A stretch of 34,105 nucleotides of DNA from a virus, in the UHGV virus genome UHGV-0177136. One strand, given 5' to 3'. Both the position numbers and the translations under genes were made by a program. The notes under the pieces were generated by a model. The model made no database searches. It was not told the origin of the DNA and saw only the letters and a list, made by a program, of their open reading frames with translations. Numbering within the stretch: position 1 is the first letter of the stretch; each line of letters opens with the position of its first letter. Shown piece by piece: positions 21,956-34,105 of this stretch.

Positions 21956-22726
21956 ATGAAAATGCAGACATTACCCATCGTTCCATGGATTGGTGGCAAA
22001 CGCCGCCTTGCAAAACACATCCTGCCGCTGTTTCCGGCGCATGAATGTTATGTGGAGCCGTTTTGTGGGGCAGCAGCGCTCTATTTTCTTAAGGTACCCG
22101 GCAAGATCGAAGTCATTAATGATATCAACGGTGAGCTGGTGAACCTGTATCGGGTGGTAAAACATCATCTGGAAGAATTTGTACGCCAGTTCAAATGGGC
22201 GCTGGTCAGCCGGCAGATCTACAAATGGCTGCAGATCACCCCGGAAGAAACACTGACGGATATCCAGCGTGCAGCACGGTTCTACTACCTTCAGAAGCAG
22301 GCGTTTGGGGGCAAGGTGGCGGAGCACAGCTTTGGTACCTCCACCATATCCCCGCCACGCTTCAACCTGCTGCGTATTGAAGAAGAACTGTCAGCGGCAC
22401 ACCTGCGGCTTTCCAGAACGGTCATAGAACACATGGACTGGCAACAGTGCATAGAACGATATGATCGCCCGCATACGTTGTTCTACTGTGACCCTCCATA
22501 CTGGGGAACGGAAGGTTATGGTGTGGAGTTCGGACTAGAAAATTATGATCATATGGCAGATTTAGCACGCAGGATCAAAGGGAAGATGATTATATCGGTG
22601 AACGATATCCCGGAAATGCGGCAGGCATTCAACGGTCTAAATATTCAGTCGGTTGATATCAGCTACAACCTCAAGATCACTGGCAAATCCAGTCGCAAGA
22701 AGGAACTCATTATCCTCAACTTTTGA
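21956..22726 (+). CDS. DNA adenine methyltransferase, Dam/D12 family (no adjacent restriction enzyme gene seen)
   Basis: 256 aa; N-terminal WIGGKRRL SAM-binding-type motif and DPPY catalytic motif; TATAAT at 21931..21936 upstream. Confidence 0.85.
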   Translation: MKMQTLPIVPWIGGKRRLAKHILPLFPAHECYVEPFCGAAALYFLKVPGKIEVINDINGELVNLYRVVKHHLEEFVRQFKWALVSRQIYKWLQITPEETLTDIQRAARFYYLQKQAFGGKVAEHSFGTSTISPPRFNLLRIEEELSAAHLRLSRTVIEHMDWQQCIERYDRPHTLFYCDPPYWGTEGYGVEFGLENYDHMADLARRIKGKMIISVNDIPEMRQAFNGLNIQSVDISYNLKITGKSSRKKELIILNF

Positions 22727-23921
22727 CCGAATAGTAAGACTTCATGCAGTGAATCAAGTACTGCATGAAGTCAAGGGCTGGTTTTGTGTACCAAAAATAA
22801 ACAGTGATAGCGGTAATAATTCCCATAACTAGAACACCACGTATAATCCAGAACGTACGTTTCTGCGTGTCTAGTCGCGCAGAAATACTGCTAAATACAC
22901 CAGCCACGTCATCTTTAATGAAGGAATATTCCTTATTAATCTGTTTTTCTTTGTATTCAATTTCTTCGCCTAAGGCCTTTATAGATTGCATCTGGTTCGA
23001 AAGTGCCAGCCAGATTAACGTTGCAGCAAAAATGCATCCCAGAAGAATTATTGTGTTTGTTATCCCTTGGCCTGACCATTTCGTAGCCACTTTGAATTGG
23101 GTAGCTACGATAACAGAGGCAACAGGAATGCCAAGTATATGGTTCTGGATATCTGAAAACGCTTTGTGGATTTTACCCATTTCTTCGACTTTTGCAGCAC
23201 GCAGTTGATCCATTACTTTGTCATAAGAGAATCCAGAAGAGTAGATACGATACCCTTTCAGAAACTTTTCATGCAGACGCTGAATATTGTCCAGTAAATA
23301 AGCGAATACTAGAGGTGAATCAATTCCATCACTAACTGCTTGAATACTTTCAATCAGAATATCTAGCTTCTGATCCTTATGGGTATCATCATTGAAACAA
23401 GCTATAAGGTTATCAAGATACTCCCTTTGCAAATTTTGTACATTTTCTGCAGCGAAGTGCGGTAATAGCTTGATAACTTCTTTTTTCAGAAAAACTAACT
23501 GACAAGTTGAGTTATCAAAGTAGGCCGCGGCCTCTTTTAGCAGATTAACGAACTCGAGAATCTTCCGGTAGTTGCTGATGAAAACGGGGATATCTTCATC
23601 ATCATTACGAAATTTTGTTTCTAGGATGAAGTAATTAGCTGGCTCAAGGCACTGATGCTTTGGAGCATTTAGCAATTTTTCATGGGTGGAAAACACAAGT
23701 CCCAGTCCACTCCGTGGTGACGTCACACGTAGGATGATCGTGTTACCTGGAGCGATAGTGCCTGTATCAATAGAAAGACCATATTCACGAGGATCATCAA
23801 GCAAAGTATCAACCAGATCACAATCGGACTGATCTAAGAGCAACAGCGAACCGACACGAAACCCCTCTTGGAATTCCATACGACGATACAGAGCTGTCAG
23901 CATCTCAAATGAAATCGCCAC
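22716..23921 (-). CDS. protein of unknown function with two C-terminal transmembrane helices; candidate effector of a two-gene module
   Basis: 401 aa; start GTG 23921 two nt after the upstream stop, with GAGG inside the upstream gene end; TM helices at ITNTIILLGCIFAATLIWLAL and FWIIRGVLVMGIITAITVYFWY; N-terminal ~275 aa unrecognised; visibly AT-richer than flanking phage genes. Confidence 0.6.
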   Translation of the reverse strand: MAISFEMLTALYRRMEFQEGFRVGSLLLLDQSDCDLVDTLLDDPREYGLSIDTGTIAPGNTIILRVTSPRSGLGLVFSTHEKLLNAPKHQCLEPANYFILETKFRNDDEDIPVFISNYRKILEFVNLLKEAAAYFDNSTCQLVFLKKEVIKLLPHFAAENVQNLQREYLDNLIACFNDDTHKDQKLDILIESIQAVSDGIDSPLVFAYLLDNIQRLHEKFLKGYRIYSSGFSYDKVMDQLRAAKVEEMGKIHKAFSDIQNHILGIPVASVIVATQFKVATKWSGQGITNTIILLGCIFAATLIWLALSNQMQSIKALGEEIEYKEKQINKEYSFIKDDVAGVFSSISARLDTQKRTFWIIRGVLVMGIITAITVYFWYTKPALDFMQYLIHCMKSYYSVKS

Positions 23922-23923
23922 GA

Positions 23924-24931
23924 TTAAACCTCAGTCATCCACATTTCCCTAAATTCTTCAGGTACATTACGTAGGGTGATAATATTTGTTTCCGGATCAT
24001 AATCAATATAGCCTTCAGTTTTCCCTTCCCGGTCAAACTTAAGTTCCCAATATTTAGACTTGCCTTTAAAAGATACCAGAGCCCGAATGACTCGACCATC
24101 AGGAACGAAGCCATCCGATAACTCCAACTCTTCAGCAGCAAGTTTACCAGATAACTCCTCGGGAGCCTGGGGCCAAATGGCATTAACAAGGGTTTCAAGA
24201 CTAAGTGGTTCACCAGCCTTACTTAGTGCATGTAAGTGTTCAAACGCACTCTTAAGAAATGCATCTTTTTCAGCGCCGTCAAGTCCTTTCTCTGCCGCAA
24301 ATGCTTTTAAAACGTCACGTAACTTTTCAGACTCTCGTTTGGCGATTAAGACATCATTACAGCCTAGGAACTGTTTAAAATAGTTTGAAACATTACCTTG
24401 CCCCTTAAGAAAACTGATATAGCGCTCTGCGCCACTTTCCCACGCGGTTAAGTCAATGCGCCCAGCCATACGCAGCTTAGCAATATCAAGATAGGTACTA
24501 TCTTGGATGTTAAAATCATCTGTGACAGTGGACCCAATGGTAGCGCTTACAATAGCTATCAACAGGTGTTCATTGTGTCCTATCACGATATTTGCAAAAA
24601 GAACATAACCACCAGTAGCCATGTTTTCTCGCTGAGAACGTTCCGTCAGGTGATGCATCATTCGGCAGGAACTTTGGTAGAAATCATCAACACCTTCGAG
24701 AAAGTCCCCAGCCATTCGTTCCATAGGATAGTTATCCGTATCGCCTTCAAAATAGCCATAACCTTTACCTGTGCGTCCTGCATATTTTGCACAAATATCG
24801 TTTATAAGGCGCTGAGAGGCTTCAGTAACTAGACCTTCTTCAGGACTCAATCTCTCAGAAGCGTCTCCATTTTGTTGTTTGTCTAAAATGTGAACTACAA
24901 CGTGTTTAACTTCAATGGTCTGCTCAGACAT
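23924..24931 (-). CDS. NdpA/YejK-like (NA37 family) nucleoid-associated DNA-binding protein homolog
   Basis: 335 aa, the length I recall for E. coli YejK; segments such as GGYVLFANI, YLDIAKLRMAGRIDLTAWESGAERYISFLKG and the C-terminal YIDYDPETNIITL match my recollection of YejK ([54 protein letters not shown]). RBS AAGGTGG upstream. Confidence 0.6.
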   Translation of the reverse strand: MSEQTIEVKHVVVHILDKQQNGDASERLSPEEGLVTEASQRLINDICAKYAGRTGKGYGYFEGDTDNYPMERMAGDFLEGVDDFYQSSCRMMHHLTERSQRENMATGGYVLFANIVIGHNEHLLIAIVSATIGSTVTDDFNIQDSTYLDIAKLRMAGRIDLTAWESGAERYISFLKGQGNVSNYFKQFLGCNDVLIAKRESEKLRDVLKAFAAEKGLDGAEKDAFLKSAFEHLHALSKAGEPLSLETLVNAIWPQAPEELSGKLAAEELELSDGFVPDGRVIRALVSFKGKSKYWELKFDREGKTEGYIDYDPETNIITLRNVPEEFREMWMTEV

Positions 24932-25001
24932 TGGCTATCCACCTTATTTTTTATTGCTTAATGGCAAATAATTTCTGCTATATGTTCTCGTTAGGAACAC
25001 A

Positions 25002-25409
25002 TTAACCCACATTTTTTAACCGCTCAATCGTTGCGGATAATTCCTTCAGTTGTTTTTCCATCTCAATCACACGCTGTTTTTCTTCAGCGCCTCGCATGAG
25101 ATCTCGCCGAACCTCAGGATCTAACTGGTTTAGAAGTTCAAGCATTTTAAGGTCTGACGGGCTGAATTGATGTTGTGTTGGTACAGCAACAATTTCTTTA
25201 GATGGAATATGTTCTTTACCGGTAAGTAGCCAATCGATCGATACACCCAAATGGGTACTTAGCGCAACAAGAGCCTCTGCGTTTGGTTCTCTCTCTCCAC
25301 GCAAATAGTTTTGAAGTGAGCGATATGGAATTTTTGATAAGTCAGATAATGCCTTTATTGTCATGCCATTAGCATCCATCACTTCACGCAATCTCTCTTT
25401 TGTACTCAT
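25002..25409 (-). CDS. prophage repressor, HTH XRE-type
   Basis: Likely start ATG 25409 (MSTKERLREVMDANGMTIKALSDLSKIPYRSLQNYLRGEREPN...; track start 25505 is a TTG inside the operator region); divergent from the ner-like gene. Confidence 0.7.
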   Translation of the reverse strand: MSTKERLREVMDANGMTIKALSDLSKIPYRSLQNYLRGEREPNAEALVALSTHLGVSIDWLLTGKEHIPSKEIVAVPTQHQFSPSDLKMLELLNQLDPEVRRDLMRGAEEKQRVIEMEKQLKELSATIERLKNVG

Positions 25410-25425
25410 TTGAACATATCTCAAT

Positions 25426-25453
25426 TTGACACACTCATTTGGGTGTGTACAAT
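25426..25453 (+). promoter_or_regulatory. sigma70-like early promoter (TTGACA-16 nt-TACAAT) with an ACACAC/GTGTGT inverted repeat in the spacer
   Basis: TTGACA at 25426..25431 and TACAAT at 25448..25453; inverted repeat 25429..25434 / 25443..25448; about 45 nt upstream of the ner-like ATG. Confidence 0.5.
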
Positions 25454-25491
25454 AGACCCAATAGAGTACATCATAACCTAACAAGAACACG

Positions 25492-25722
25492 GTGCATATG
25501 AACAAACAACAAGTTCGGGCACGGCTGGTTGAACGAGGCAGTAGCTTGCGCCAGTTCGCGCTTAACGCGGGCTATGAACCACGAACAGTCACCCAGGCAG
25601 TCAGTCGCTGGGCTGGTAAAAGTGAACTACCTCGCGGTCGTTTGACTTATCGGATTTTGCGAGATCTATCGGTTGCAATAGGTAAAGAAGTTACCCCCGG
25701 TATCCTTAAGGAGGCGTCATGA
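25492..25722 (+). CDS. ner: Ner-like DNA-binding regulator
   Basis: Track start is GTG 25492; probable ATG at 25498 (MNKQQVRARLVERGSSLRQFALNAGY...); small HTH protein divergent from the repressor and first gene of the early operon, as in Mu. Confidence 0.6.
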   Translation: MHMNKQQVRARLVERGSSLRQFALNAGYEPRTVTQAVSRWAGKSELPRGRLTYRILRDLSVAIGKEVTPGILKEAS

Positions 25723-26027
25723 ATAAACCAAATACATCAAGCTCAGGTACCCGTATTTTGCGCGTTCTTAAGGCCTTACGTGGCCACGCTTTGAACGGTG
25801 TTTCTAACGGGGAACTAGCGGTTGCACTGCACGAATCACCGGCAAACATCAACCGGGCACTTAACACGCTCATTGAAGAAGGGTTGGCTCTGAAACTAGA
25901 AAACGGGCGTTTCGCACCAGGCATCCAGTTGCTGCAGATCGCCATGGCCCACAGTAACGAGATGGCACGTGCACAGGATCGCATTAACGAAATCAACCAA
26001 CGTGTTATTTCAGGTAGTCGTTTGTAA
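25719..26027 (+). CDS. winged-helix DNA-binding protein (IclR-like HTH)
   Basis: 102 aa; TRILRVLKALRG...SNGELAVALHESPANINRALNTLIEEGL; ATGA overlap with the upstream stop. Confidence 0.5.
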   Translation: MNKPNTSSSGTRILRVLKALRGHALNGVSNGELAVALHESPANINRALNTLIEEGLALKLENGRFAPGIQLLQIAMAHSNEMARAQDRINEINQRVISGSRL

Positions 26028-26037
26028 GGAGTAATCA

Positions 26038-26949
26038 ATGGGACGCACCAAATCACCGGTTAGCACTGAACTGAACGTCGAGGTACCGCTGTCGGATGAT
26101 CTCAATGTCAGTCTAAACGCCATGACACAGCATCGCATGGAAATCATGCAACAGTTCGGCGATGGTCTGCCCTATGAGCGCGATCGTGTTGTCCATGAGG
26201 CATGCTTTTATATGGCACAGAGCGCTGAGGCCATGCTGGAGGCAGGTAAGCGGCTGATAATCCTTAAGGAAAATGAACCACACGGGGAGTTTATAAAGAT
26301 TCTTGAAAGTGAGTTGGGGCTGGCATACCGGACATCTGTGAGAATGATGCAAGCATCGACAAAATACTTATCCCCGGCGCTGAAACCAAATGTGCCAACG
26401 TTGGCACATTTGGGAAAAGCCAAACTTTTCGAATTAATGACAGAAGACGACGAAGAGCTTGCCGAACTGGCCGACGGCGGCACAGTTGCCGGCCTGACGC
26501 TTGACGACGTTGATCGCATGTCAGTACGCGAACTTCGCCAGGCCCTGCGCGAAGCGCGCGAAACCAACGCAGCACAACAGCGCGTACTCGCCGATAAAAA
26601 TGAAAAAATTGATTCTCTCTCTACCAGACTGGAAAAGAAATCCCGTATTCAGCCGCCTGAGCCTGATGAGGAGGTTAAGAAGCTGCGGGCGGAAGTGACA
26701 GCATTAGCGGTTGAGGCGGAATCTGCTATCGCCGTTCGACTGTCCAGCGCTTTTGAGACACTGTGCGCATATTGTGCTGAAAACATGATTGATACCCCCA
26801 GAGACTTCATGGCAGGCCTGGTCTGTCAACTGGAAAGCACAGCGCGTAGCCTGCGCTCCACATTTGACCTGCCGGACGAGCCAACAGGCAATGCAGCGCC
26901 TTCATGGCTGACTGAGCCGACGCCACAGATTAACGGGCTGGAGGCATAA
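26038..26949 (+). CDS. hypothetical early protein
   Basis: 303-aa ORF with RBS AAGGAG; acidic and coiled-coil segments; directly upstream of the transposase. Confidence 0.5.
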   Translation: MGRTKSPVSTELNVEVPLSDDLNVSLNAMTQHRMEIMQQFGDGLPYERDRVVHEACFYMAQSAEAMLEAGKRLIILKENEPHGEFIKILESELGLAYRTSVRMMQASTKYLSPALKPNVPTLAHLGKAKLFELMTEDDEELAELADGGTVAGLTLDDVDRMSVRELRQALREARETNAAQQRVLADKNEKIDSLSTRLEKKSRIQPPEPDEEVKKLRAEVTALAVEAESAIAVRLSSAFETLCAYCAENMIDTPRDFMAGLVCQLESTARSLRSTFDLPDEPTGNAAPSWLTEPTPQINGLEA

Positions 26950-26952
26950 CCA

Positions 26953-28722
26953 ATGAATGCTGCCCTGACTGAACGACTGGTTTATGTCGCCCGCGCGGCA
27001 CGTGACGCGGGGCATGGTAAACGCGGTGCAATATACGACGCTGCCTGTGCTGAACTTGGCATGTCCCGCGCCACTCTGCTGCGCAGGCTGAAGGAGGTCT
27101 CTGTGACTGATAAACGCAAAAAACGCGCCGATGCCGGGCGCAGCGCCCTGACCCGCGACGAAGCCGCGCTGATATCTGCCACACTGCGTGAGGCCACCCG
27201 CAAGAACGGTAAGCGTCTCTATTCCATCGCGGATGCAGTGGAAACCCTGCGGGCTAACGGCTTTATCTCCGCAGGCAGAACAGATGAAACCACCGGTGAG
27301 TTTTTCCCGTTGTCCGAAGATGCCATCAGCCGTGCCCTGCGTAACTATGGCCTGCACCCGGAACAACTGGATGCCCCTGCACCACATACTGAAGTGGCCA
27401 GTCTGCATCCCAATCATGTCTGGCAGATTGATGCCTCGCTCTGCACGCTTTACTACCTGAGCAATGGACATAAAGGGCTGCAGGTGATGGACAGCGCGAA
27501 GTTCTACAAGAACAAGCCCGCTAACCTTGCCCGTATCGCCAGTGACCGCGTGTGGAGTTACGAGATTACCGACCATGCCAGCGGCTGGATTTACGTTGAG
27601 TATGTGACGGGGGCGGAATCCGGTGAGAACCTGTGTTCTGTGCTTATCAACGCCATGCAGGAGCGTGGCGGCGCAGACGTGTTGCACGGTGTGCCGAAAA
27701 TACTCTATCTCGACCCCGGCTCGGCAAACACCGCGGGTATGACGAAAAACATGTGTCGCTCACTGGGCATTGACCTGATAGCGCACAAGCCGCATAACGC
27801 CCGCGCCACCGGACAGGTGGAAAAGGCGCGTGACATTATCGAACGCAAGCTGGAGCCGGGTCTGAAGTTCCGGCCGGTTCACAGTCTGGAAGAACTCAAC
27901 GCGCTGGCCGCGAAATGGCGCAGCCACTTTAACGCCACGGCTGTTCACAGCCGCCACGGTAAAACCCGCACGGATATCTGGCTGAAGATTACTGCTGAGC
28001 AGCTGAAAAAAGCGCCTTCCGTTGAGGTATGTCGTGAACTGGCTGTGGCGGCACCAGAACTCCGCAAAGTCACGCCAAAACTTCGTGTCTCGTTCCGGGG
28101 CACTGAATTTGACGTATCAACGGTACCGGGCGTACTGGTCGGTGAAAAACTGATGATTACCCGTAACCCGTGGCGCAGCGATGTGGCACAGGTGGTTCTG
28201 ACCGGTGAGGACGGCCACGAGACGTTCTTCCTGGTCGAAGAGGTCAGAAAGAACGAGTTTGGCTTTGCTGAAGGCGCGGCGGTATTTGGCGAAAGTTACA
28301 AAGCCCTGCCGGAAACCCCGGCGCAGATGGCGGCAAAAGAAACCGAAGAGCTGGTCACCGGTACAGACAACGCCGCAGATGCAGCTGCCGCACGCAAGGC
28401 GAAGGCGCTGCCGTTCGGCGGGCGGCTTGACCCGTATAAACATATTGATGACGCCACACTTCCGGCCTACATGCCGAAGCGCGGTCAGGCCTCTGACGTA
28501 CGCGGGCCGCGCACTGAACAACGTCCCATGACTCATGTGGAGGCCGCGAAAGCCCTGCGCGATAAGTTCAGCGCCGACGGCCTTACCTGGACGCCGGAAC
28601 ATTACCGCCAGTTAACGGCACAGTACCCGGACGGCGTACCGGAAGCTGCACTGGATGAAGTCATGGCCACGCTGACCACGCCGGCACGCAGCAGTGTTAT
28701 CAGCATTGTTAACGGCAACTGA
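26953..28722 (+). CDS. DDE transposase, Mu A-like
   Basis: 589 aa; N-terminal HTH-like region then integrase-core-like segment with candidate catalytic residues (WQIDAS, YLDPGS, downstream E); followed by the ATPase partner. Confidence 0.8.
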   Translation: MNAALTERLVYVARAARDAGHGKRGAIYDAACAELGMSRATLLRRLKEVSVTDKRKKRADAGRSALTRDEAALISATLREATRKNGKRLYSIADAVETLRANGFISAGRTDETTGEFFPLSEDAISRALRNYGLHPEQLDAPAPHTEVASLHPNHVWQIDASLCTLYYLSNGHKGLQVMDSAKFYKNKPANLARIASDRVWSYEITDHASGWIYVEYVTGAESGENLCSVLINAMQERGGADVLHGVPKILYLDPGSANTAGMTKNMCRSLGIDLIAHKPHNARATGQVEKARDIIERKLEPGLKFRPVHSLEELNALAAKWRSHFNATAVHSRHGKTRTDIWLKITAEQLKKAPSVEVCRELAVAAPELRKVTPKLRVSFRGTEFDVSTVPGVLVGEKLMITRNPWRSDVAQVVLTGEDGHETFFLVEEVRKNEFGFAEGAAVFGESYKALPETPAQMAAKETEELVTGTDNAADAAAARKAKALPFGGRLDPYKHIDDATLPAYMPKRGQASDVRGPRTEQRPMTHVEAAKALRDKFSADGLTWTPEHYRQLTAQYPDGVPEAALDEVMATLTTPARSSVISIVNGN

Positions 28723-28732
28723 GGAGGAAAAC

Positions 28733-29899
28733 ATGCTGGTACTGAAGCAGCAACTGAAAGAGGCCCGTATCTCACAGGCGGTGGTGGCGAGAGCTGTCGA
28801 TGTTTCTGAGGCCACGCTGGCCCAGATTGTGAATCATAACGCGTGGCCCCGCACCCGCCCCGGAGAAGTGCGCCGGCGTCTTGCGTCCTGGCTGGAAAGT
28901 CAGGGGATTGATACAACGAAGAGTTTTGATGCTGTACAGGGCGCGGCCACGCCCCGTACAGCGGGTACCACAGATAAAACGAGCCTCAGTGAGGAAGAGA
29001 ATATGTTACTCAAAAAACAGGTGTTATTTCCAGCAACCAAAAAAGCGTTTGGTCTTTTCCGTGACCCGTTCGCCGACGAAGCCATGCAGGGTTCTGATGA
29101 TGTGTTCACCACCCCGGACATCCGCTATGTGCGTGAGGCGCTGTACCAGACAGCCCGTCATGGTGGATTTATGGCCGTCATCGGTGAGTCCGGTGCGGGC
29201 AAATCCACGCTGCGCCGCGACCTGACTGAACGTATCAACCGCGAGAATGCGCCGGTAATTGTTATCGAGCCATACGTCATCGCTATGGAAGACAACGATG
29301 TGAAAGGGAAAACTCTGAAGGCAGCAGCGATTGCCGAAGCCATTATCAGTACCATCGCACCACTGGAAAGCATCAGACGCAGTCAGGACGCCCGCTTTCG
29401 CCAGTTGCATCGCGTCCTGAAAGACAGCAGCCAGGCGGGGTTCAGCCACGTTCTGGTGATTGAGGAGGCTCACAGTCTGCCCATTCCGACACTGAAACAC
29501 CTCAAACGCTTTTTTGAGCTGGAGTCCGGTTTCAAAAAGCTGCTGTCCATCATGCTGATTGGCCAGCCGGAACTGGCGACAAAACTGTCTGAACGCAACA
29601 TGGAAGTCCGCGAAGTCGTTCAGCGCTGTGAGGTGGTCGAACTTCTGCCTCTGGACAATCACCTTGAAGAATTTCTGACGTTCAAACTGCAACGGGCCGG
29701 TAAACAACTGACGGACATTATGGACGCCAGCGCAGTGGATGCCATACGTACCCGCCTGAGCAATCCGGGAAGTCATCGTAAAAATATGGTCAGCCTGCTG
29801 TATCCGCTGGCCGTCAGTAACCTGGTAATAGCCGCCATGAATCTGGCCGCTGAAATCGGGGTTCCACAGGTCAACGCTGACGTTGTCAAAGGGGTTTAA
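28733..29899 (+). CDS. transposition ATPase, MuB/TniB-like AAA+
   Basis: Start ATG 28733 after GAGGAGG (track ORF starts at an upstream GTG); N-terminal HTH-like segment; Walker A GESGAGKST; Walker B-like HVLVIEEAH. Confidence 0.8.
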   Translation: MLVLKQQLKEARISQAVVARAVDVSEATLAQIVNHNAWPRTRPGEVRRRLASWLESQGIDTTKSFDAVQGAATPRTAGTTDKTSLSEEENMLLKKQVLFPATKKAFGLFRDPFADEAMQGSDDVFTTPDIRYVREALYQTARHGGFMAVIGESGAGKSTLRRDLTERINRENAPVIVIEPYVIAMEDNDVKGKTLKAAAIAEAIISTIAPLESIRRSQDARFRQLHRVLKDSSQAGFSHVLVIEEAHSLPIPTLKHLKRFFELESGFKKLLSIMLIGQPELATKLSERNMEVREVVQRCEVVELLPLDNHLEEFLTFKLQRAGKQLTDIMDASAVDAIRTRLSNPGSHRKNMVSLLYPLAVSNLVIAAMNLAAEIGVPQVNADVVKGV

Positions 29900-29901
29900 T
29901 A

Positions 29902-30171
29902 ATGAAATCCACCACAGGTATCAACCAGCAAATCAGTAAAGTGCAGTCAGCCATTATGGCGCTTAAGGCGACGAACACGGATGTACAAAGCATCACCATC
30001 AGGGGTAACAAACCTGTCATCCGTGTTTCCAGGAGTGCGCATTGCATGCGCATGCTTGAGCAGGGAAAGGCCTGTTATCTGTATACCGGACATGACCACA
30101 GGGGATATTTCCGTCAGGGCGTTTTCGAACTGCACGGCTGTCGCGTCGTGTGGCCGGAATCTTTGTGGTAA
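29902..30171 (+). CDS. hypothetical protein
   Basis: 89-aa ORF tightly following the ATPase gene. Confidence 0.4.
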   Translation: MKSTTGINQQISKVQSAIMALKATNTDVQSITIRGNKPVIRVSRSAHCMRMLEQGKACYLYTGHDHRGYFRQGVFELHGCRVVWPESLW

Positions 30172-30198
30172 TCAGCACAACTGGAGAAATCATAAAAA

Positions 30199-30729
30199 AT
30201 GGCAAAAAGTACAAAAGGTGCAAAACGTATCAAGGCCGCAGCAGCACTCTGGGTGCCGGGGACACGTGAAGAGGTCATTGAGGGCATCAGACTGCTCGGT
30301 GACGCACACCGTGAACTGGTCAGGGCTGAAACAGAAATGAATGACGCCATTGGCGATATCACCGCACGTTATGCCCCGCTCACCGAGAGCCTGAAAAAAC
30401 GCATGGCCGAACTGCAGTCCGGTATTCAGACATGGTGTGAGGCACACCGTGATGAACTGACCGGCAACGGGAAGGTGAAGTTTGCTAACCTCACCACCGG
30501 CGAGGTGCAGTGGTGAAACCGCCCGCCGTCAGTCAGCATTCGCGGAGCGGATAATGTTATTGAACTACTGAGACGTCTGGGGCTTGAGTGCTTTATTCGT
30601 GTAAAAGAGGAAATAAATAAAGACGCTATCCTGAATGAAAAAGAGGCCGTGAAAAATATTCCCGGTATTTCCATTAAAAGCGACATTGAGGATTTTTCAA
30701 TAATTCCTTTTGAGCAGGATGTGCAGTAA
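30199..30729 (+). pseudogene. gam: Mu Gam-like host-nuclease inhibitor interrupted by an in-frame TGA at 30514..30516
   Basis: Codons 1-105 (MAKSTKGAKRIKAAAALWVPGTREEVIEGIRLLGD...) match my recollection of Mu Gam. The same frame stays open after the TGA for 70 more codons (NRPPSVSIRGADNVIELLRRLGLECFIRVKEEINKDAILNEKEAVKNIPGISIKSDIEDFSIIPFEQDVQ) that match the Gam C-terminus; the TGA sits where Mu has Arg. Confidence 0.7.
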
Positions 30730-30826
30730 ACACACCACGTTAATTATTTAATAAAAACATTTTCTTTTTTATTCCGGCGTCAGCGCCGTGGGCTTCTGCA
30801 CGCCGGAAACAGAGGAGAATTAAATT

Positions 30827-31021
30827 ATGATATTTAAATGTATTCAGTGCGAGAGGGATATAACAGCCCTGCGTTTTCACAGCGCCATCGCCGTGGTGTC
30901 CGGTAAGTACCATGTACCTGCAGTACGTGTCACCCTGGTCTGTCCGTACTGCAGCCAGCATTTTTCGGCGGACGTGCCCGTCATGGAATTCTCCCGCCCT
31001 GACAGGGAGGACGCGCAATGA
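30827..31021 (+). CDS. small zinc-ribbon-like protein
   Basis: 64 aa with CxxC (CIQC) and CxxC (CPYC) pairs; RBS GAGGAG upstream. Confidence 0.5.
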   Translation: MIFKCIQCERDITALRFHSAIAVVSGKYHVPAVRVTLVCPYCSQHFSADVPVMEFSRPDREDAQ

Positions 31022-31290
31022 TTACCCCACAGGAAGCACGACAGCGCACCCGAACTCTTGTTGAACACTATGTCAACGAGTGTGAATGCCGCGACCTCAC
31101 CGATGTGAAGCACGTCCTGACGGCGCTAATCAGCATGGCCACGCAGGCCATTGTGGCAACCAACGGAAAGGAGGCTGCCCTGCAGGTACTGATGAACACA
31201 CTCACCCACACGGCAGAGCACGAGGTGCCGTACCGGGTGGAAACCACTGCAGAAGGCGGCCTGAACATCACCGTCGACCGGAAACACTGA
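31018..31290 (+). CDS. hypothetical protein
   Basis: 90-aa ORF; ATGA overlap with the upstream stop. Confidence 0.45.
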   Translation: MITPQEARQRTRTLVEHYVNECECRDLTDVKHVLTALISMATQAIVATNGKEAALQVLMNTLTHTAEHEVPYRVETTAEGGLNITVDRKH

Positions 31291-31299
31291 GGGCGCGGC

Positions 31300-31602
31300 A
31301 TGACACGGAACACCGAACTCACCCGCACCGCCCTCTACCGTCTGGCCCTGCAGCGTTTCGGGCCGGACGCACAGGCCCTGAAACTGACAGAAGAGGCCGC
31401 TGAACTGGCGGCCAGTGCCGCCCGCAACCTGAACGGACAGGGCAGCGAAAGTGACCTCGCGGCAGAGCTGGCAGACGTGGAAATCATGACAGAGCAGCTG
31501 CGCCTTCAGGGAATGGACCGGCTGATTGACTTCCACAAACAGAAAAAACTGGAACGCCTTGCCGCACGGCTGGGCGTCACATACACCGGAGAAATCATAT
31601 GA
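31300..31602 (+). CDS. small all-alpha protein with MazG-like EExxE signature (putative nucleotide pyrophosphohydrolase domain)
   Basis: 100 aa; TEEAAELAAS and ELADVEIM acidic motifs reminiscent of MazG/HisE-type NTP pyrophosphatases; from memory only. Confidence 0.4.
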   Translation: MTRNTELTRTALYRLALQRFGPDAQALKLTEEAAELAASAARNLNGQGSESDLAAELADVEIMTEQLRLQGMDRLIDFHKQKKLERLAARLGVTYTGEII

Positions 31603-31982
31603 ACCGCACCGAACAGACGCCACAACTGACGCCGGAAGATGCTGCACAGCGTATTCGGGTACTGGAAGACGAAAACGAATACCTGCGCAAGAGATTTGAA
31701 GAGGTGGACCTGTACTTCGGGCGCAATCTGGTCGTCATGAAAGCTGCAGTGATTGAGTGGCGGGCCACCGGTGATGCCTGGAACGGCATGGCGTGGATTT
31801 ACAACACCCTGTGTGGGCCGGGCGAACTGCCGCCGCAAGAGGAAAAAGAGGCACAGGAATACTTCAACAGGGAAACTGAAGTTATCGACAGAAAACTGGC
31901 TGCCCTGTACCACTGGTTCAGGAAATATCACAGGACACACGCCGCACCTGACCAGACCACCACAGGAGGTACCAGTGACTGA
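31599..31982 (+). CDS. hypothetical protein
   Basis: 127-aa ORF; ATGA overlap with the upstream gene. Confidence 0.45.
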   Translation: MNRTEQTPQLTPEDAAQRIRVLEDENEYLRKRFEEVDLYFGRNLVVMKAAVIEWRATGDAWNGMAWIYNTLCGPGELPPQEEKEAQEYFNRETEVIDRKLAALYHWFRKYHRTHAAPDQTTTGGTSD

Positions 31983-32190
31983 CACCATTATGGAAATTGT
32001 GGTATGGGCTTTCCTGCTTACTGGTATAGCCGTGTGCATCTGCGCCGGATTCGCCCTGGTTGCCCTGCTGACCCACGTGGTGACGCAGTGGTTATGGGAA
32101 AAGCTTAAAGCAGCATACAGCCTGAAAGAGCTGTCCGACGCTGTTCGGGCATGGAAACGGCAGAAAAATACCGGAGATACTGAACAATGA
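31975..32190 (+). CDS. small membrane protein (single TM helix)
   Basis: GTG 31975 with AGGAGG 7 nt upstream (ATG alternative 31990); VVWAFLLTGIAVCICAGFALVALL hydrophobic helix; lies inside a longer track ORF that starts upstream. Confidence 0.45.
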   Translation: MTDTIMEIVVWAFLLTGIAVCICAGFALVALLTHVVTQWLWEKLKAAYSLKELSDAVRAWKRQKNTGDTEQ

Positions 32191-32870
32191 CAGACCAGAA
32201 TAAACACATTGAGAAACTGAAAAAGTTGCTGGCGCTGGCCGCATCCGGCAACCCGCACGAGGCCGCTCTGGCACTGCGCCGCGCCCGTAAACTGATGGAT
32301 GTTCACGGCATCACACATTCCGACATTGCCATGAGTGATATTGATGAAACCATCAGTCATTACTGGCCGACAGGCAGTCTCCGTCCACCGCGCTACATGC
32401 TGGGCCTGATGAACATCATCCGCGAGGCATTTGGTGTTAACTCCATAATTCACCCCGGCACATATCCGGGTGTGGGGTTCTACGGCAACCGGGAACGGGC
32501 CGCACTGGCTGCGTACACCTGGGAAGTGCTGGCCCGCCAGCTGAAAAAGGCGCGTCAGCAGTATATCAGCGCACAGAACAAAAGAATAAAAACTGCCACC
32601 CGTACCAGCCGTGGTGACCAGTTTGCTGAAGGCTGGGTGCTGGTCGTTATCAGTGAAATACAGTCCTTCGCCCTGACCGATGACGAACGTGAACTGATGC
32701 AGCAGTGGCTGGAACATAAATACCCGCAGACGCAAACCACCAGGGCGCGTAAACCGGGAAGAAGCCGCAATGGCGACGCCTCGCGCTATGCGGGGTTTCG
32801 TGAAGGGCAGAACGTCAGACTGCACCGCCCGGTCAGTGGGCAGGAACAACAGAAACTGGAGGCCAGATGA
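32187..32870 (+). CDS. DUF2786-like phage protein
   Basis: 227 aa; N-terminus KLKKLLALAASGNPHEAALALRRARKLM typical of a widespread phage/plasmid family; ATGA overlap upstream. Confidence 0.55.
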   Translation: MTDQNKHIEKLKKLLALAASGNPHEAALALRRARKLMDVHGITHSDIAMSDIDETISHYWPTGSLRPPRYMLGLMNIIREAFGVNSIIHPGTYPGVGFYGNRERAALAAYTWEVLARQLKKARQQYISAQNKRIKTATRTSRGDQFAEGWVLVVISEIQSFALTDDERELMQQWLEHKYPQTQTTRARKPGRSRNGDASRYAGFREGQNVRLHRPVSGQEQQKLEAR

Positions 32871-33097
32871 TTACGCTATCAGGTAACAGCCGGAAATTAA
32901 AAGCCTGCCGAATATCTGCCAGATACCTTTTTGCCCGCGCCTTTTTTAAGAACGTCAGGCCGGGGATCACAATTGGTGTTATTGCCGGACGCGAACAGGT
33001 TGAAAAATACATGTCAGGTGCATGGTGGAATAACGACCCTGTCATTGCTGCCCGTAATATTCATATCAGTTGGGGGGATATTCAGAATGACTGCTGA
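32867..33097 (+). CDS. hypothetical protein
   Basis: 76-aa ORF; ATGA overlap with upstream gene. Confidence 0.35.
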   Translation: MITLSGNSRKLKACRISARYLFARAFFKNVRPGITIGVIAGREQVEKYMSGAWWNNDPVIAARNIHISWGDIQNDC

Positions 33098-33302
33098 ATC
33101 TGTTGTATGTGCCCTGTTCTGGTATTGTTTTGTCGGTTGGTGTACTGCTGAACTGCACCGCCGTTCAGGGTTTTATTCACGTTACAGTGGTGCCGGCTAC
33201 TGGATTAGCTGGTCGGTGATGTTCCTGTGCTGGCCTGTGGCGCTTCCTTTATATGTCGATTATATCGGTGGCGCAGGTAAAAGGAGCAACGATGATGACT
33301 AA
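33087..33302 (+). CDS. small membrane protein (two hydrophobic segments)
   Basis: ATG 33087 inside a longer track ORF; 71 aa with VVCALFWYCFVGWC and WISWSVMFLCWPVALPLYV. Confidence 0.4.
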   Translation: MTAESVVCALFWYCFVGWCTAELHRRSGFYSRYSGAGYWISWSVMFLCWPVALPLYVDYIGGAGKRSNDDD

Positions 33303-33744
33303 ACAACGTCTTATCCAGCTCATTCATATTGCCCGTAATGAACTGGGTATGGATGAAGACACCTACCGCCAGATGTTACAGGGGCTGACCGGTAAAGCCT
33401 CAACCAAAGGAATGGATACCACACAACTAAATTGCGTGCTGGAATCCATGAAAAGGAAAGGCTTTCGCGTTAAGCCTGCCGGAAAAGCCAGCTCCGGTTT
33501 ACAGCTGGATAACCATCCGCAGTCCAGGAAAATCCGTGCTCTATGGCTTGAAATGGCTGCTGCCGGCATTGTTCGTGACCGTTCAGAAAATGCATTAGCG
33601 CGGTGGATCAAGCGGGAAACGGGCATCAGCGCCCTGCGCTGGCTCAATACTGAACAGGCAAGCAGTGTTATTGAGAAACTGAAGAAGTGGCAGCACAGAG
33701 CTGCGGGAGTAAAACATGAGCGACCTGAATCAGTTTCGAAGTAA
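33292..33744 (+). CDS. gemA: GemA-like protein (Mu gp16 family)
   Basis: Start ATG 33292 after AAAGGAG; MMTKQRLIQLIHIARNELGMDEDTYRQMLQ... resembles Mu GemA-family proteins; directly precedes the Mor-like gene as in Mu. Confidence 0.65.
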   Translation: MMTKQRLIQLIHIARNELGMDEDTYRQMLQGLTGKASTKGMDTTQLNCVLESMKRKGFRVKPAGKASSGLQLDNHPQSRKIRALWLEMAAAGIVRDRSENALARWIKRETGISALRWLNTEQASSVIEKLKKWQHRAAGVKHERPESVSK

Positions 33745-34105
33745 AGGGCCGGAACTCCTGGTGGAACTGGCACAGCATACCTCTGAGACCGTTCGCGAGA
33801 TTATTGATATTGAGCCCGCAATTGCCGACCAGATTGGTCAGGCCGTCGCGAACCGCATGATGCAGGTCTGGGGCGGGCAAAACGTTTATTTCCCGATGGG
33901 CATGGTATGGAAGGTCAGTCAGCGCGACCGGGAAATCTTCAGGGAGTTTAACGGACGTAACCACCATGAACTGGCCCGCAAATTTGGTGTTTCGCTTCAG
34001 TGGGTCTACAGCGTGGTTAAGCGGGTAAGAAAAGAAGAACTGGATCGGATGCAGGGCAAGCTATTTGCTGATGAACCCGATGTAGATACGGAGAAAAAAG
34101 AGTAA
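33716..34105 (+). CDS. mor: Mor-like middle transcription activator
   Basis: 129 aa; C-terminal region (REFNGRNHHELARKFGVSLQWVYSVVKRVRK) resembles the Mu Mor/C family; complete, stop at 34103..34105. Confidence 0.75.
   Translation: MSDLNQFRSKGPELLVELAQHTSETVREIIDIEPAIADQIGQAVANRMMQVWGGQNVYFPMGMVWKVSQRDREIFREFNGRNHHELARKFGVSLQWVYSVVKRVRKEELDRMQGKLFADEPDVDTEKKE

Follow-up and report, generated by a model that had tools for sequence, protein, structure and literature searches.

In phage Mu, the operators overlap the early promoter Pe, and the DNA-binding domain of the c repressor resembles the N-terminus of MuA. The choice of Mu between lysis and lysogeny is governed by the promoters PcM and Pe (PMC3820752). 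The transposable phage B3 has overlapped pC2 and pE promoters, an arrangement that has been called prevalent (PMC9936078), and the comparison of BcepMu with KS10 lists its small gp16 product among the DNA-binding proteins (PMC2628397). For the phage group studied here, our literature search returned no transcript, footprint or genetic data, and no description of immunity control.

The locus lies within a 34,105-bp stretch of DNA, the whole of which was analyzed (the window). As in the immunity region of Mu (c, Pe/PcM, ner and O1-O3), also that of a transposable phage, a repressor gene diverges from an early operon in which a small HTH gene is followed by transposase A/B genes. The layout (repressor, small HTH gene, DUF3102-like gene, rve transposase) matches the synteny of BcepMu, in which the gp17 repressor gene faces gp16, followed by a DUF3102/gp10-like gene and the rve transposase gene. 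Since phage PhiKM, whose early region shows 93% identity, has been assigned to Bcepmuvirus, and since the locus has an equivalent of the gp17/gp16 pair, we regard the element as a BcepMu-like transposable prophage and the 88-bp gap between the divergent genes as its immunity region. Our main reading, to which we assign a probability of about 0.8, is that positions 25402-25475 are the immunity switch of this prophage, and that Pe would be shut by the XRE-type repressor at two operators, O2 and O3.

The prophage and its regulatory genes

An initial annotation of this DNA had proposed a lysis-lysogeny switch, and the gene layout supports it: an XRE-type repressor gene on the minus strand faces a small HTH gene, behind which lie the IclR-HTH, DUF3102, rve and AAA+ genes. 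The genes concerned are:

25002-25409, minus strand: repressor gene (135 aa); its product has an XRE/CI-type HTH at the N-terminus, a DWLLTG linker that is conserved, and a helical C-terminal part
25498-25722, plus strand: small HTH gene (74 aa) that opens the Pe operon, at the place of Cro or Ner; its product is close to the BcepMu gp16 family
25719-26027, plus strand: IclR-type HTH gene
26038-26949, plus strand: DUF3102 gene
26953-28722, plus strand: rve (DDE) transposase gene
28733-29899, plus strand: AAA+ MuB-like ATPase gene

The repressor matched Pfam HTH_3 (3.4e-12) and Phage_CI_repr (1.5e-6), PHROG transcriptional repressor families and an ImmR-like Xre HTH in the PDB, and it also matched DicA and RstR models. 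Pfam revealed no Peptidase_S24 autocleavage domain in the 135-aa protein, and PADLOC gave generic HTH matches only. A longer, 167-aa repressor ORF starting from TTG at 25505 was rejected, because this stretch carries 1-2 nt indels and is not conserved in relatives, and RefSeq/GenBank annotate proteins of 135-138 aa.

The 74-aa protein had been described as ner-like. Its scores are below the family thresholds both for TIGR04111 (29.1 bits, cut-off 34) and for Pfam HTH_35 (16.7 bits, cut-off 25). BLASTP gave no alignment with BcepMu gp16, and PDB sequence searches with the single sequence and with a 30-sequence profile gave no meaningful match. A UniRef homologue that is 73% identical is named 'BcepMu gp16 family'. 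The AF2 model (pLDDT 94) predicts a four-helix HTH, whose best fold match in the PDB is EnrR (TM 0.62-0.65, probability 0.96, E 0.17), followed by general XRE/434 Cro-type domains; EnrR is ∼45% identical to Mu Ner (PMC9023278). With profile scores below threshold, an EnrR fold match and this position, the protein is to be classed as a Cro/Ner-type HTH by predicted fold and position only, and it is in this restricted sense that the earlier name holds. Further along the operon, a weak HTH_3-like stretch was seen at the N-terminus of the MuB-like ATPase (residues 4-34, 28733-28840; E 0.007, below the cut-off).

The divergent genome layout is the BcepMu arrangement rather than that of Mu. To the left of the switch, 1-21741 is occupied by long minus-strand ORFs that, by analogy with KP12, probably include lysis and structural genes, the early genes run rightward over 25498-34105, and a Dam methylase gene (21956-22726, plus strand) lies between the two blocks. 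Between the repressor and the Dam methylase gene there is a two-gene cargo on the minus strand (22716-24931), coding for a 335-aa protein of the NA37 nucleoid-associated type (Pfam 1e-80) and a 401-aa protein with a weak C-terminal match to the PADLOC model KwaA (Kiwa defence system; 8e-5). Different genes occupy this place in KP12, Ecol_448 and PhiKM, so that it looks like a variable moron or defence slot. The early region was found in 634-644 of 5,426 complete E. coli genomes (∼12%), as well as in phages KP12, Phi06_2974 B and PhiKM, and the family extends to Klebsiella, Mixta, Pantoea, Lelliottia and other genera.

The proposed early promoter and a candidate repressor promoter

The elements of the proposed switch are listed below; the dyads have no strand.

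25426-25431, plus strand: −35 hexamer of Pe, TTGACA, from the sequence read and the promoter scan; TTGAC is invariant in 11 diverged relatives
25448-25453, plus strand: −10 hexamer of Pe, TACAAT, from the sequence read and the scan; TA..AT is nearly invariant in relatives
25429-25448, dyad: O2, a 20-bp near-palindrome (ACACACTCAT/TTGGGTGTGT) filling the Pe spacer, with a 16-bp core at 25431-25446; five immunity types have a palindrome at this position
25454-25469, dyad: O3, AGACCCAATAGAGTAC, centred 23 bp rightward of O2 and covering the position where Pe is predicted to start; all 11 relatives keep GAGTACA
25402-25417, dyad: O1, GTACTCATTTGAACAT, centred 29 bp leftward of O2, where it overlaps the start codon of the repressor gene; its left half is good and its right half poor
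25243-25258, dyad: distal operator-like site, ACACCCAAATGGGTAC, centred 188 bp leftward of O2, within the repressor gene (codons S-T-H-L-G-V)
25470-25475, minus strand: candidate −10 hexamer of the repressor promoter, TATGAT, facing Pe; conserved in relatives, but scoring only 8/12

On the plus strand the order is CAT, TTGAACATATCTCAAT, TTGACA, CACTCATTTGGGTGTG, TACAAT, the O3 sequence and ATCATAACC.

The hexamers of the rightward promoter in the initial annotation, TTGACA and TACAAT on the plus strand with a 16-nt spacer, were borne out by the sequence read and by the promoter scan. Pe matches the sigma-70 consensus at 11 of 12 positions (6/6 at −35, 5/6 at −10), has no TG extension and has a spacer one nt below the optimum; it is the sole match of at least 11/12 on both strands of the window. 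By chance 0.19 such matches are expected per window, and 17% of first-order Markov random sequences contain at least one; hence, the weight of Pe comes mostly from its location in the 88-bp divergent intergenic gap, pointing into the early operon from 45 nt upstream of the first gene. At a threshold of 9/12 there were three sites against 3.6 expected, so that only the 11/12 site is informative. Comparison with 11 diverged relatives also supports a rightward early promoter, since the hexamers, the 16-nt spacing and the distance to the repressor ATG are kept while the intervening DNA is variable. The −10 box appears among the relatives as TACAAT, TAAAAT, TAATAT, TATCAT or TATAAT, and neither the 14 nt that separate O1 from the −35 box (with 1-2 nt indels) nor the distal 5′ UTR is conserved. 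From the position of the −10 hexamer, transcription would start at ∼25460, and the transcript would cover the genes for the small HTH protein, the IclR-HTH protein, DUF3102, the DDE transposase and its AAA+ partner. Folding of the Pe 5′ UTR was no better than that of shuffled sequences.

The scan detected no leftward promoter of at least 9/12 for the repressor gene. In the TATGAT hexamer, T1, A2 and T6, together with a G at −14 (25477), are invariant in 11 relatives, and the middle bases vary; no convincing −35 box was found for it. We infer that TATGAT may be the −10 box of the repressor promoter, with a leftward start near 25463, so that it would stand face to face with Pe and O3 would lie exactly between the two −10 boxes. 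A lambda-style back-to-back promoter, or a leaderless one, to the left of O2 appears unlikely, as there is no −10-like hexamer in this stretch, which is the least conserved and carries indels. No match to the IHF consensus WATCAANNNNTTR with one mismatch or fewer was found in 25410-25497, no LexA box was seen by eye in the 88-bp gap, and an Rfam scan of 24900-25800 (E ≤ 1) gave no match.

The candidate operator sites and the proteins that may bind them

The operator proposed earlier consisted of ACACAC and GTGTGT arms, 8 nt apart, within the Pe spacer. The arms are real (25429-25434 and 25443-25448, with the inverted repeat centred at 25438.5), but they reach beyond the spacer: ACA of the left arm also belongs to the −35 box, and the right arm ends on the first base, a T, of the −10 box. 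O2 has dyad symmetry of the size of an HTH dimer site, with 8 of 10 pairs over 20 bp, and looser arms of 17 nt show 76% complementarity. What is conserved is the inner core, RYACYCA-WW-TGRGTRY at 25431-46 (ACYCA-NN-TGRGT), and not the outer arms, in place of which KP12 has ACATAC/GTGCGT. In close relatives of the same immunity (KP12, two E. coli prophages, and prophages of Mixta, Apirhabdus and Pantoea), both hexamers are retained, the −10 box of Pantoea being TGCAAT, and the differences from the window lie mainly within O2, e.g., ATACCCGTTTGGGTGC. In the KP12-type relatives, complementarity of the outer arms falls to 4/6, while it improves in the inner core, ACCC...GGGT. Compared with KP12, identity is 70% for the C-terminal coding part of the repressor gene, 84% for its HTH-coding part, 93% for the 88-bp gap, 93% for the gp16-like gene and 80% for the next gene; because the gap and the adjacent gp16-like gene are equally identical, part of the gap conservation may reflect a shared recombination block rather than selection.

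Conservation extends beyond this set, as the hexamers, the spacing and the inner dyad of O2 are kept across relatives whose repressors are 40-92% identical. In the more distant ones (40-66%), TTGAC, the 16-nt spacing, TA..AT, the O2 core YC-N3-4-TG-GT and the GAGTACA of O3 are invariant or nearly so. The Lelliottia repressor, for example, is 50% identical overall and has the same PYRSLQNYLRGEREP helix region, and its promoter reads TTGACC-TACTCGTTTGAGTACG-TAAAAT.

Where a single operator had been noted, the site is one among three or four candidates. The core ACTCATTTGGGT recurs nearby in both orientations, and four 16-mers can be aligned in one orientation: ACACCCAAATGGGTAC (25243-58), GTACTCATTTGAACAT (25402-17), ACACTCATTTGGGTGT (25431-46) and AGACCCAATAGAGTAC (25454-69). 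The degenerate motif RYACYCAWWTGRGTRY, with two mismatches or fewer, has exactly four matches in the 34 kb, all within 25243-25469 (227 bp); 0.96 were expected and 2 of 100 shuffles reach four, a count that is partly circular since the consensus was derived from the same sites. With O2 alone as the query, the distal site matched at 13/16 and O3 at 11/16, and matches of 11/16 are frequent elsewhere. The half-site TGRGTRC is the strongly conserved half, and left halves are degenerate in several lineages. O1 is the weakest operator call; it has equivalents at −28 to −30 in class 2 (see below) and PhiKM, and its conservation is partly explained by the coding and start-codon context.

The strongest test of the operator reading is the comparison with hetero-immune relatives. 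In class 2 (Ecol_448, HSP60 and Pseudocitrobacter), the repressor HTH is unrelated, the C-terminal half of the repressor is kept and the gp16-like protein is 96-99% identical. The spacer dyad of this class is TTATTCAtttTGAATAA. It too has a neighbour on either side, at −28/29 and at +23, the latter (the position of O3) being a hybrid site. Three further classes share a different 62-aa Cro-like protein. The promoter of PhiKM and H105 reads TTGATA-TGCTCATAATTATGAGC-AATAAT, that of B1H118 and LR31 TTTACA-TATCCCATT(T/A)TTGGGAT-AATAAT, and a further immunity type has repeated CTGCAC motifs. Altogether, four other immunity types have their own palindrome, often perfect over 17-18 bp, at the same spacer position. 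Since class 2 has exchanged both the HTH and the dyad while its gp16-like protein is nearly unchanged, the palindrome in the Pe spacer follows the repressor DNA-binding domain and not the downstream small protein. The proposal of an operator in the spacer is thus upheld by relatives with a different palindrome there that tracks the repressor HTH, but it is the inner core, and not the arms first noted, that is conserved. The classes differ by a modular swap of the repressor N-terminus. Within E. coli, the prophage family has at least five immunity types, and that of the window was found in 62 of 5,426 genomes; one class is a hybrid in which the C-terminal half of the repressor and the gp16-like gene were kept and the HTH and operators swapped (loci L002-L006 and L087-L092 compared).

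From these observations, each of the 16-bp dyads is most likely a target for a dimer of the 135-aa XRE-type repressor. Because O2 fills the spacer and touches both hexamers, repressor bound there would exclude RNA polymerase from Pe. O3 would cover the Pe start site, and O1 lies over the start codon of the repressor itself.

In lambda and Mu, a Cro or Ner protein binds inside the same control region, and it is conceivable, but unlikely, that here the dyad is mainly bound by the gp16-like protein, which would shut Pe late in the decision, with the repressor binding elsewhere. The high-confidence four-helix HTH model, whose best fold match is the Ner relative EnrR, agrees with such a role, and so does the right half of O3, GAGTACA, which is invariant in class 2, where the gp16-like protein is the same and the repressor HTH is unrelated. 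However, O1 and O2 of class 2 are different and track the swapped repressor HTH, in spite of the near identity of the gp16-like proteins, and one relative (L125) lacks a gp16-like gene and yet keeps O2 and O3 alongside a class-1-type repressor N-terminus. O1-O3 could still be used by both the repressor and the gp16-like protein.

Still less probable is that the inverted repeat is a chance low-complexity (AC)3/(GT)3 sequence, and that a real promoter is regulated from other sites only. Taken alone, the ACACAC/GTGTGT repeat is not beyond chance, since the window has 14 perfect repeats with 6-bp arms and an 8-nt gap against ∼8 expected, and palindromes with at least 8 of 10 pairs at 21 positions; the arms are a dinucleotide repeat of a type common across the window, and they decay in the KP12-type relatives as described above. 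Against this reading, the inner dyad is kept across repressors of 40-92% identity, the four other immunity types have spacer palindromes of their own, and related copies stand at fixed offsets. It is very improbable that the palindrome acts as a nucleic-acid structure, i.e., a hairpin in the leftward repressor leader or a cruciform, instead of as a protein site: the 30-nt segment 25424-25453 does fold at −12.2 kcal/mol (z = −4.0), but the palindrome lies upstream of the Pe start and would hence be absent from the Pe transcript. For the leftward leader (25465-25410), folding did not exceed that of shuffled sequences (z = −0.67), and the Rfam scan gave no match. Among relatives, changes in the left half are not compensated in the right half, as expected for a protein site rather than for a stem.

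The distal site and comparison with known switches

The site at 25243-25258 is embedded in the repressor gene. In most class-1 relatives, the best intragenic match to their own O2 or O3 is found at −188 ± 2, over the codons T-H/R-L-G. The Leu codon of this site is TTG in 18 of 18 relatives, down to 30% protein identity; TTG makes up only 25% of the Leu codons in these repressor genes, and neighbouring Leu columns vary. The Gly codon is GGT in 10 of the 11 sequences that have Gly. The repressor gene of each other immunity class likewise contains a copy of that class's palindrome, 174-256 bp away from O2; the protein positions concerned (CINIA, LTGMS and VPKMSP) are not homologous. When operators and genes were compared in all combinations, the cross-matrix was block-diagonal. 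After shuffling the triplets of each gene, the observed match was reached in 0.05-5% of the trials, depending on the class. These results support the distal site as a real candidate operator.

The distal copy may stabilize repression by cooperative binding or by looping through the shared C-terminal domain of the repressor. Two matches to the IHF consensus with one mismatch occur on the minus strand of the repressor gene, at 25231-25243, which abuts the distal operator, and at 25347-25359, between the distal site and O1; as the window has 27 such matches against 19 expected, which is near the chance frequency, they are only a lead for a bend-assisted loop. A more elaborate scheme can be drawn in which a looped device of four operators acts on face-to-face lytic and lysogenic promoters, with starts ∼3 bp apart and O3 exactly between the −10 boxes, and in which at least four immunity types acquired their intragenic operators independently, each at codons not homologous to those of the others. 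We offer this scheme tentatively, at somewhat less than even odds. A distal operator with synonymous-site conservation would be a small, clean case of regulatory DNA embedded in coding sequence.

When compared with Mu, the repressor of the window belongs to the XRE/HTH_3 type and not to the Mu c type. The control region is only 88 bp long, with no IHF consensus in the gap, and the late genes are on the opposite strand. BcepMu is closer in organization: it reads CAT-19 nt-TTGACA-17-CATACT, with 7-bp inverted arms (GATTACC/GGTAATC) flanking the −35 box, so that in both loci TTGACA is found at 16-19 nt from the start of the repressor gene, and inverted arms surround that of BcepMu. The two repressors, however, are only 27% identical over 48 aa, and the operator sequences are unrelated.

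With the OR region of the lambdoid phages (lambda, 434 and P22), the locus shares a repressor with an HTH_3/CI-type domain, dyads of 16-17 bp, a row of three sites at intervals of 23 and 29 bp, a small HTH gene that diverges from the repressor gene, and the modular swapping of immunity by exchange of HTH and operators. It differs in that the repressor has no S24 autocleavage domain, the central operator lies in the spacer of the lytic promoter, no back-to-back promoter of the PRM type was found (the sole conserved leftward −10 box being to the right of O3), and the extra operator is inside the repressor gene and not at a separate OL. The candidate repressor −10 box (25475-25470) facing Pe, with starts a few bp apart, recalls the face-to-face switch promoters of P2 (Pe/Pc), 186 (pR/pL) and B3 (pE/pC2). 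In P2, the C binding sites flank the −10 box, ∼22 bp apart. Unlike in these phages, the leftward promoter proposed here is deduced from TAnnnT plus a G at −14 and has no good −35 box. In TP901-1, CI acts with OD, a distal operator inside a gene, and with DNA looping. As in systems of this type, the family studied here has a few candidate operators at the switch plus one that is 170-260 bp away in coding sequence, which in this case is the gene of the repressor itself.

The region would be a new, uncharacterised phage switch, in which the operator embedded in the repressor gene is modestly interesting. The promoter, the operator consensus and the immunity types can be used for predicting which prophages repress each other, for designing reporter and induction experiments, and for annotation of this switch in related genomes. 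The mechanism, in which a repressor would occlude a sigma-70 promoter, is a textbook one and a normal phage design; relative to the known systems, the new detail is only the extra sites, one of them in the repressor gene.
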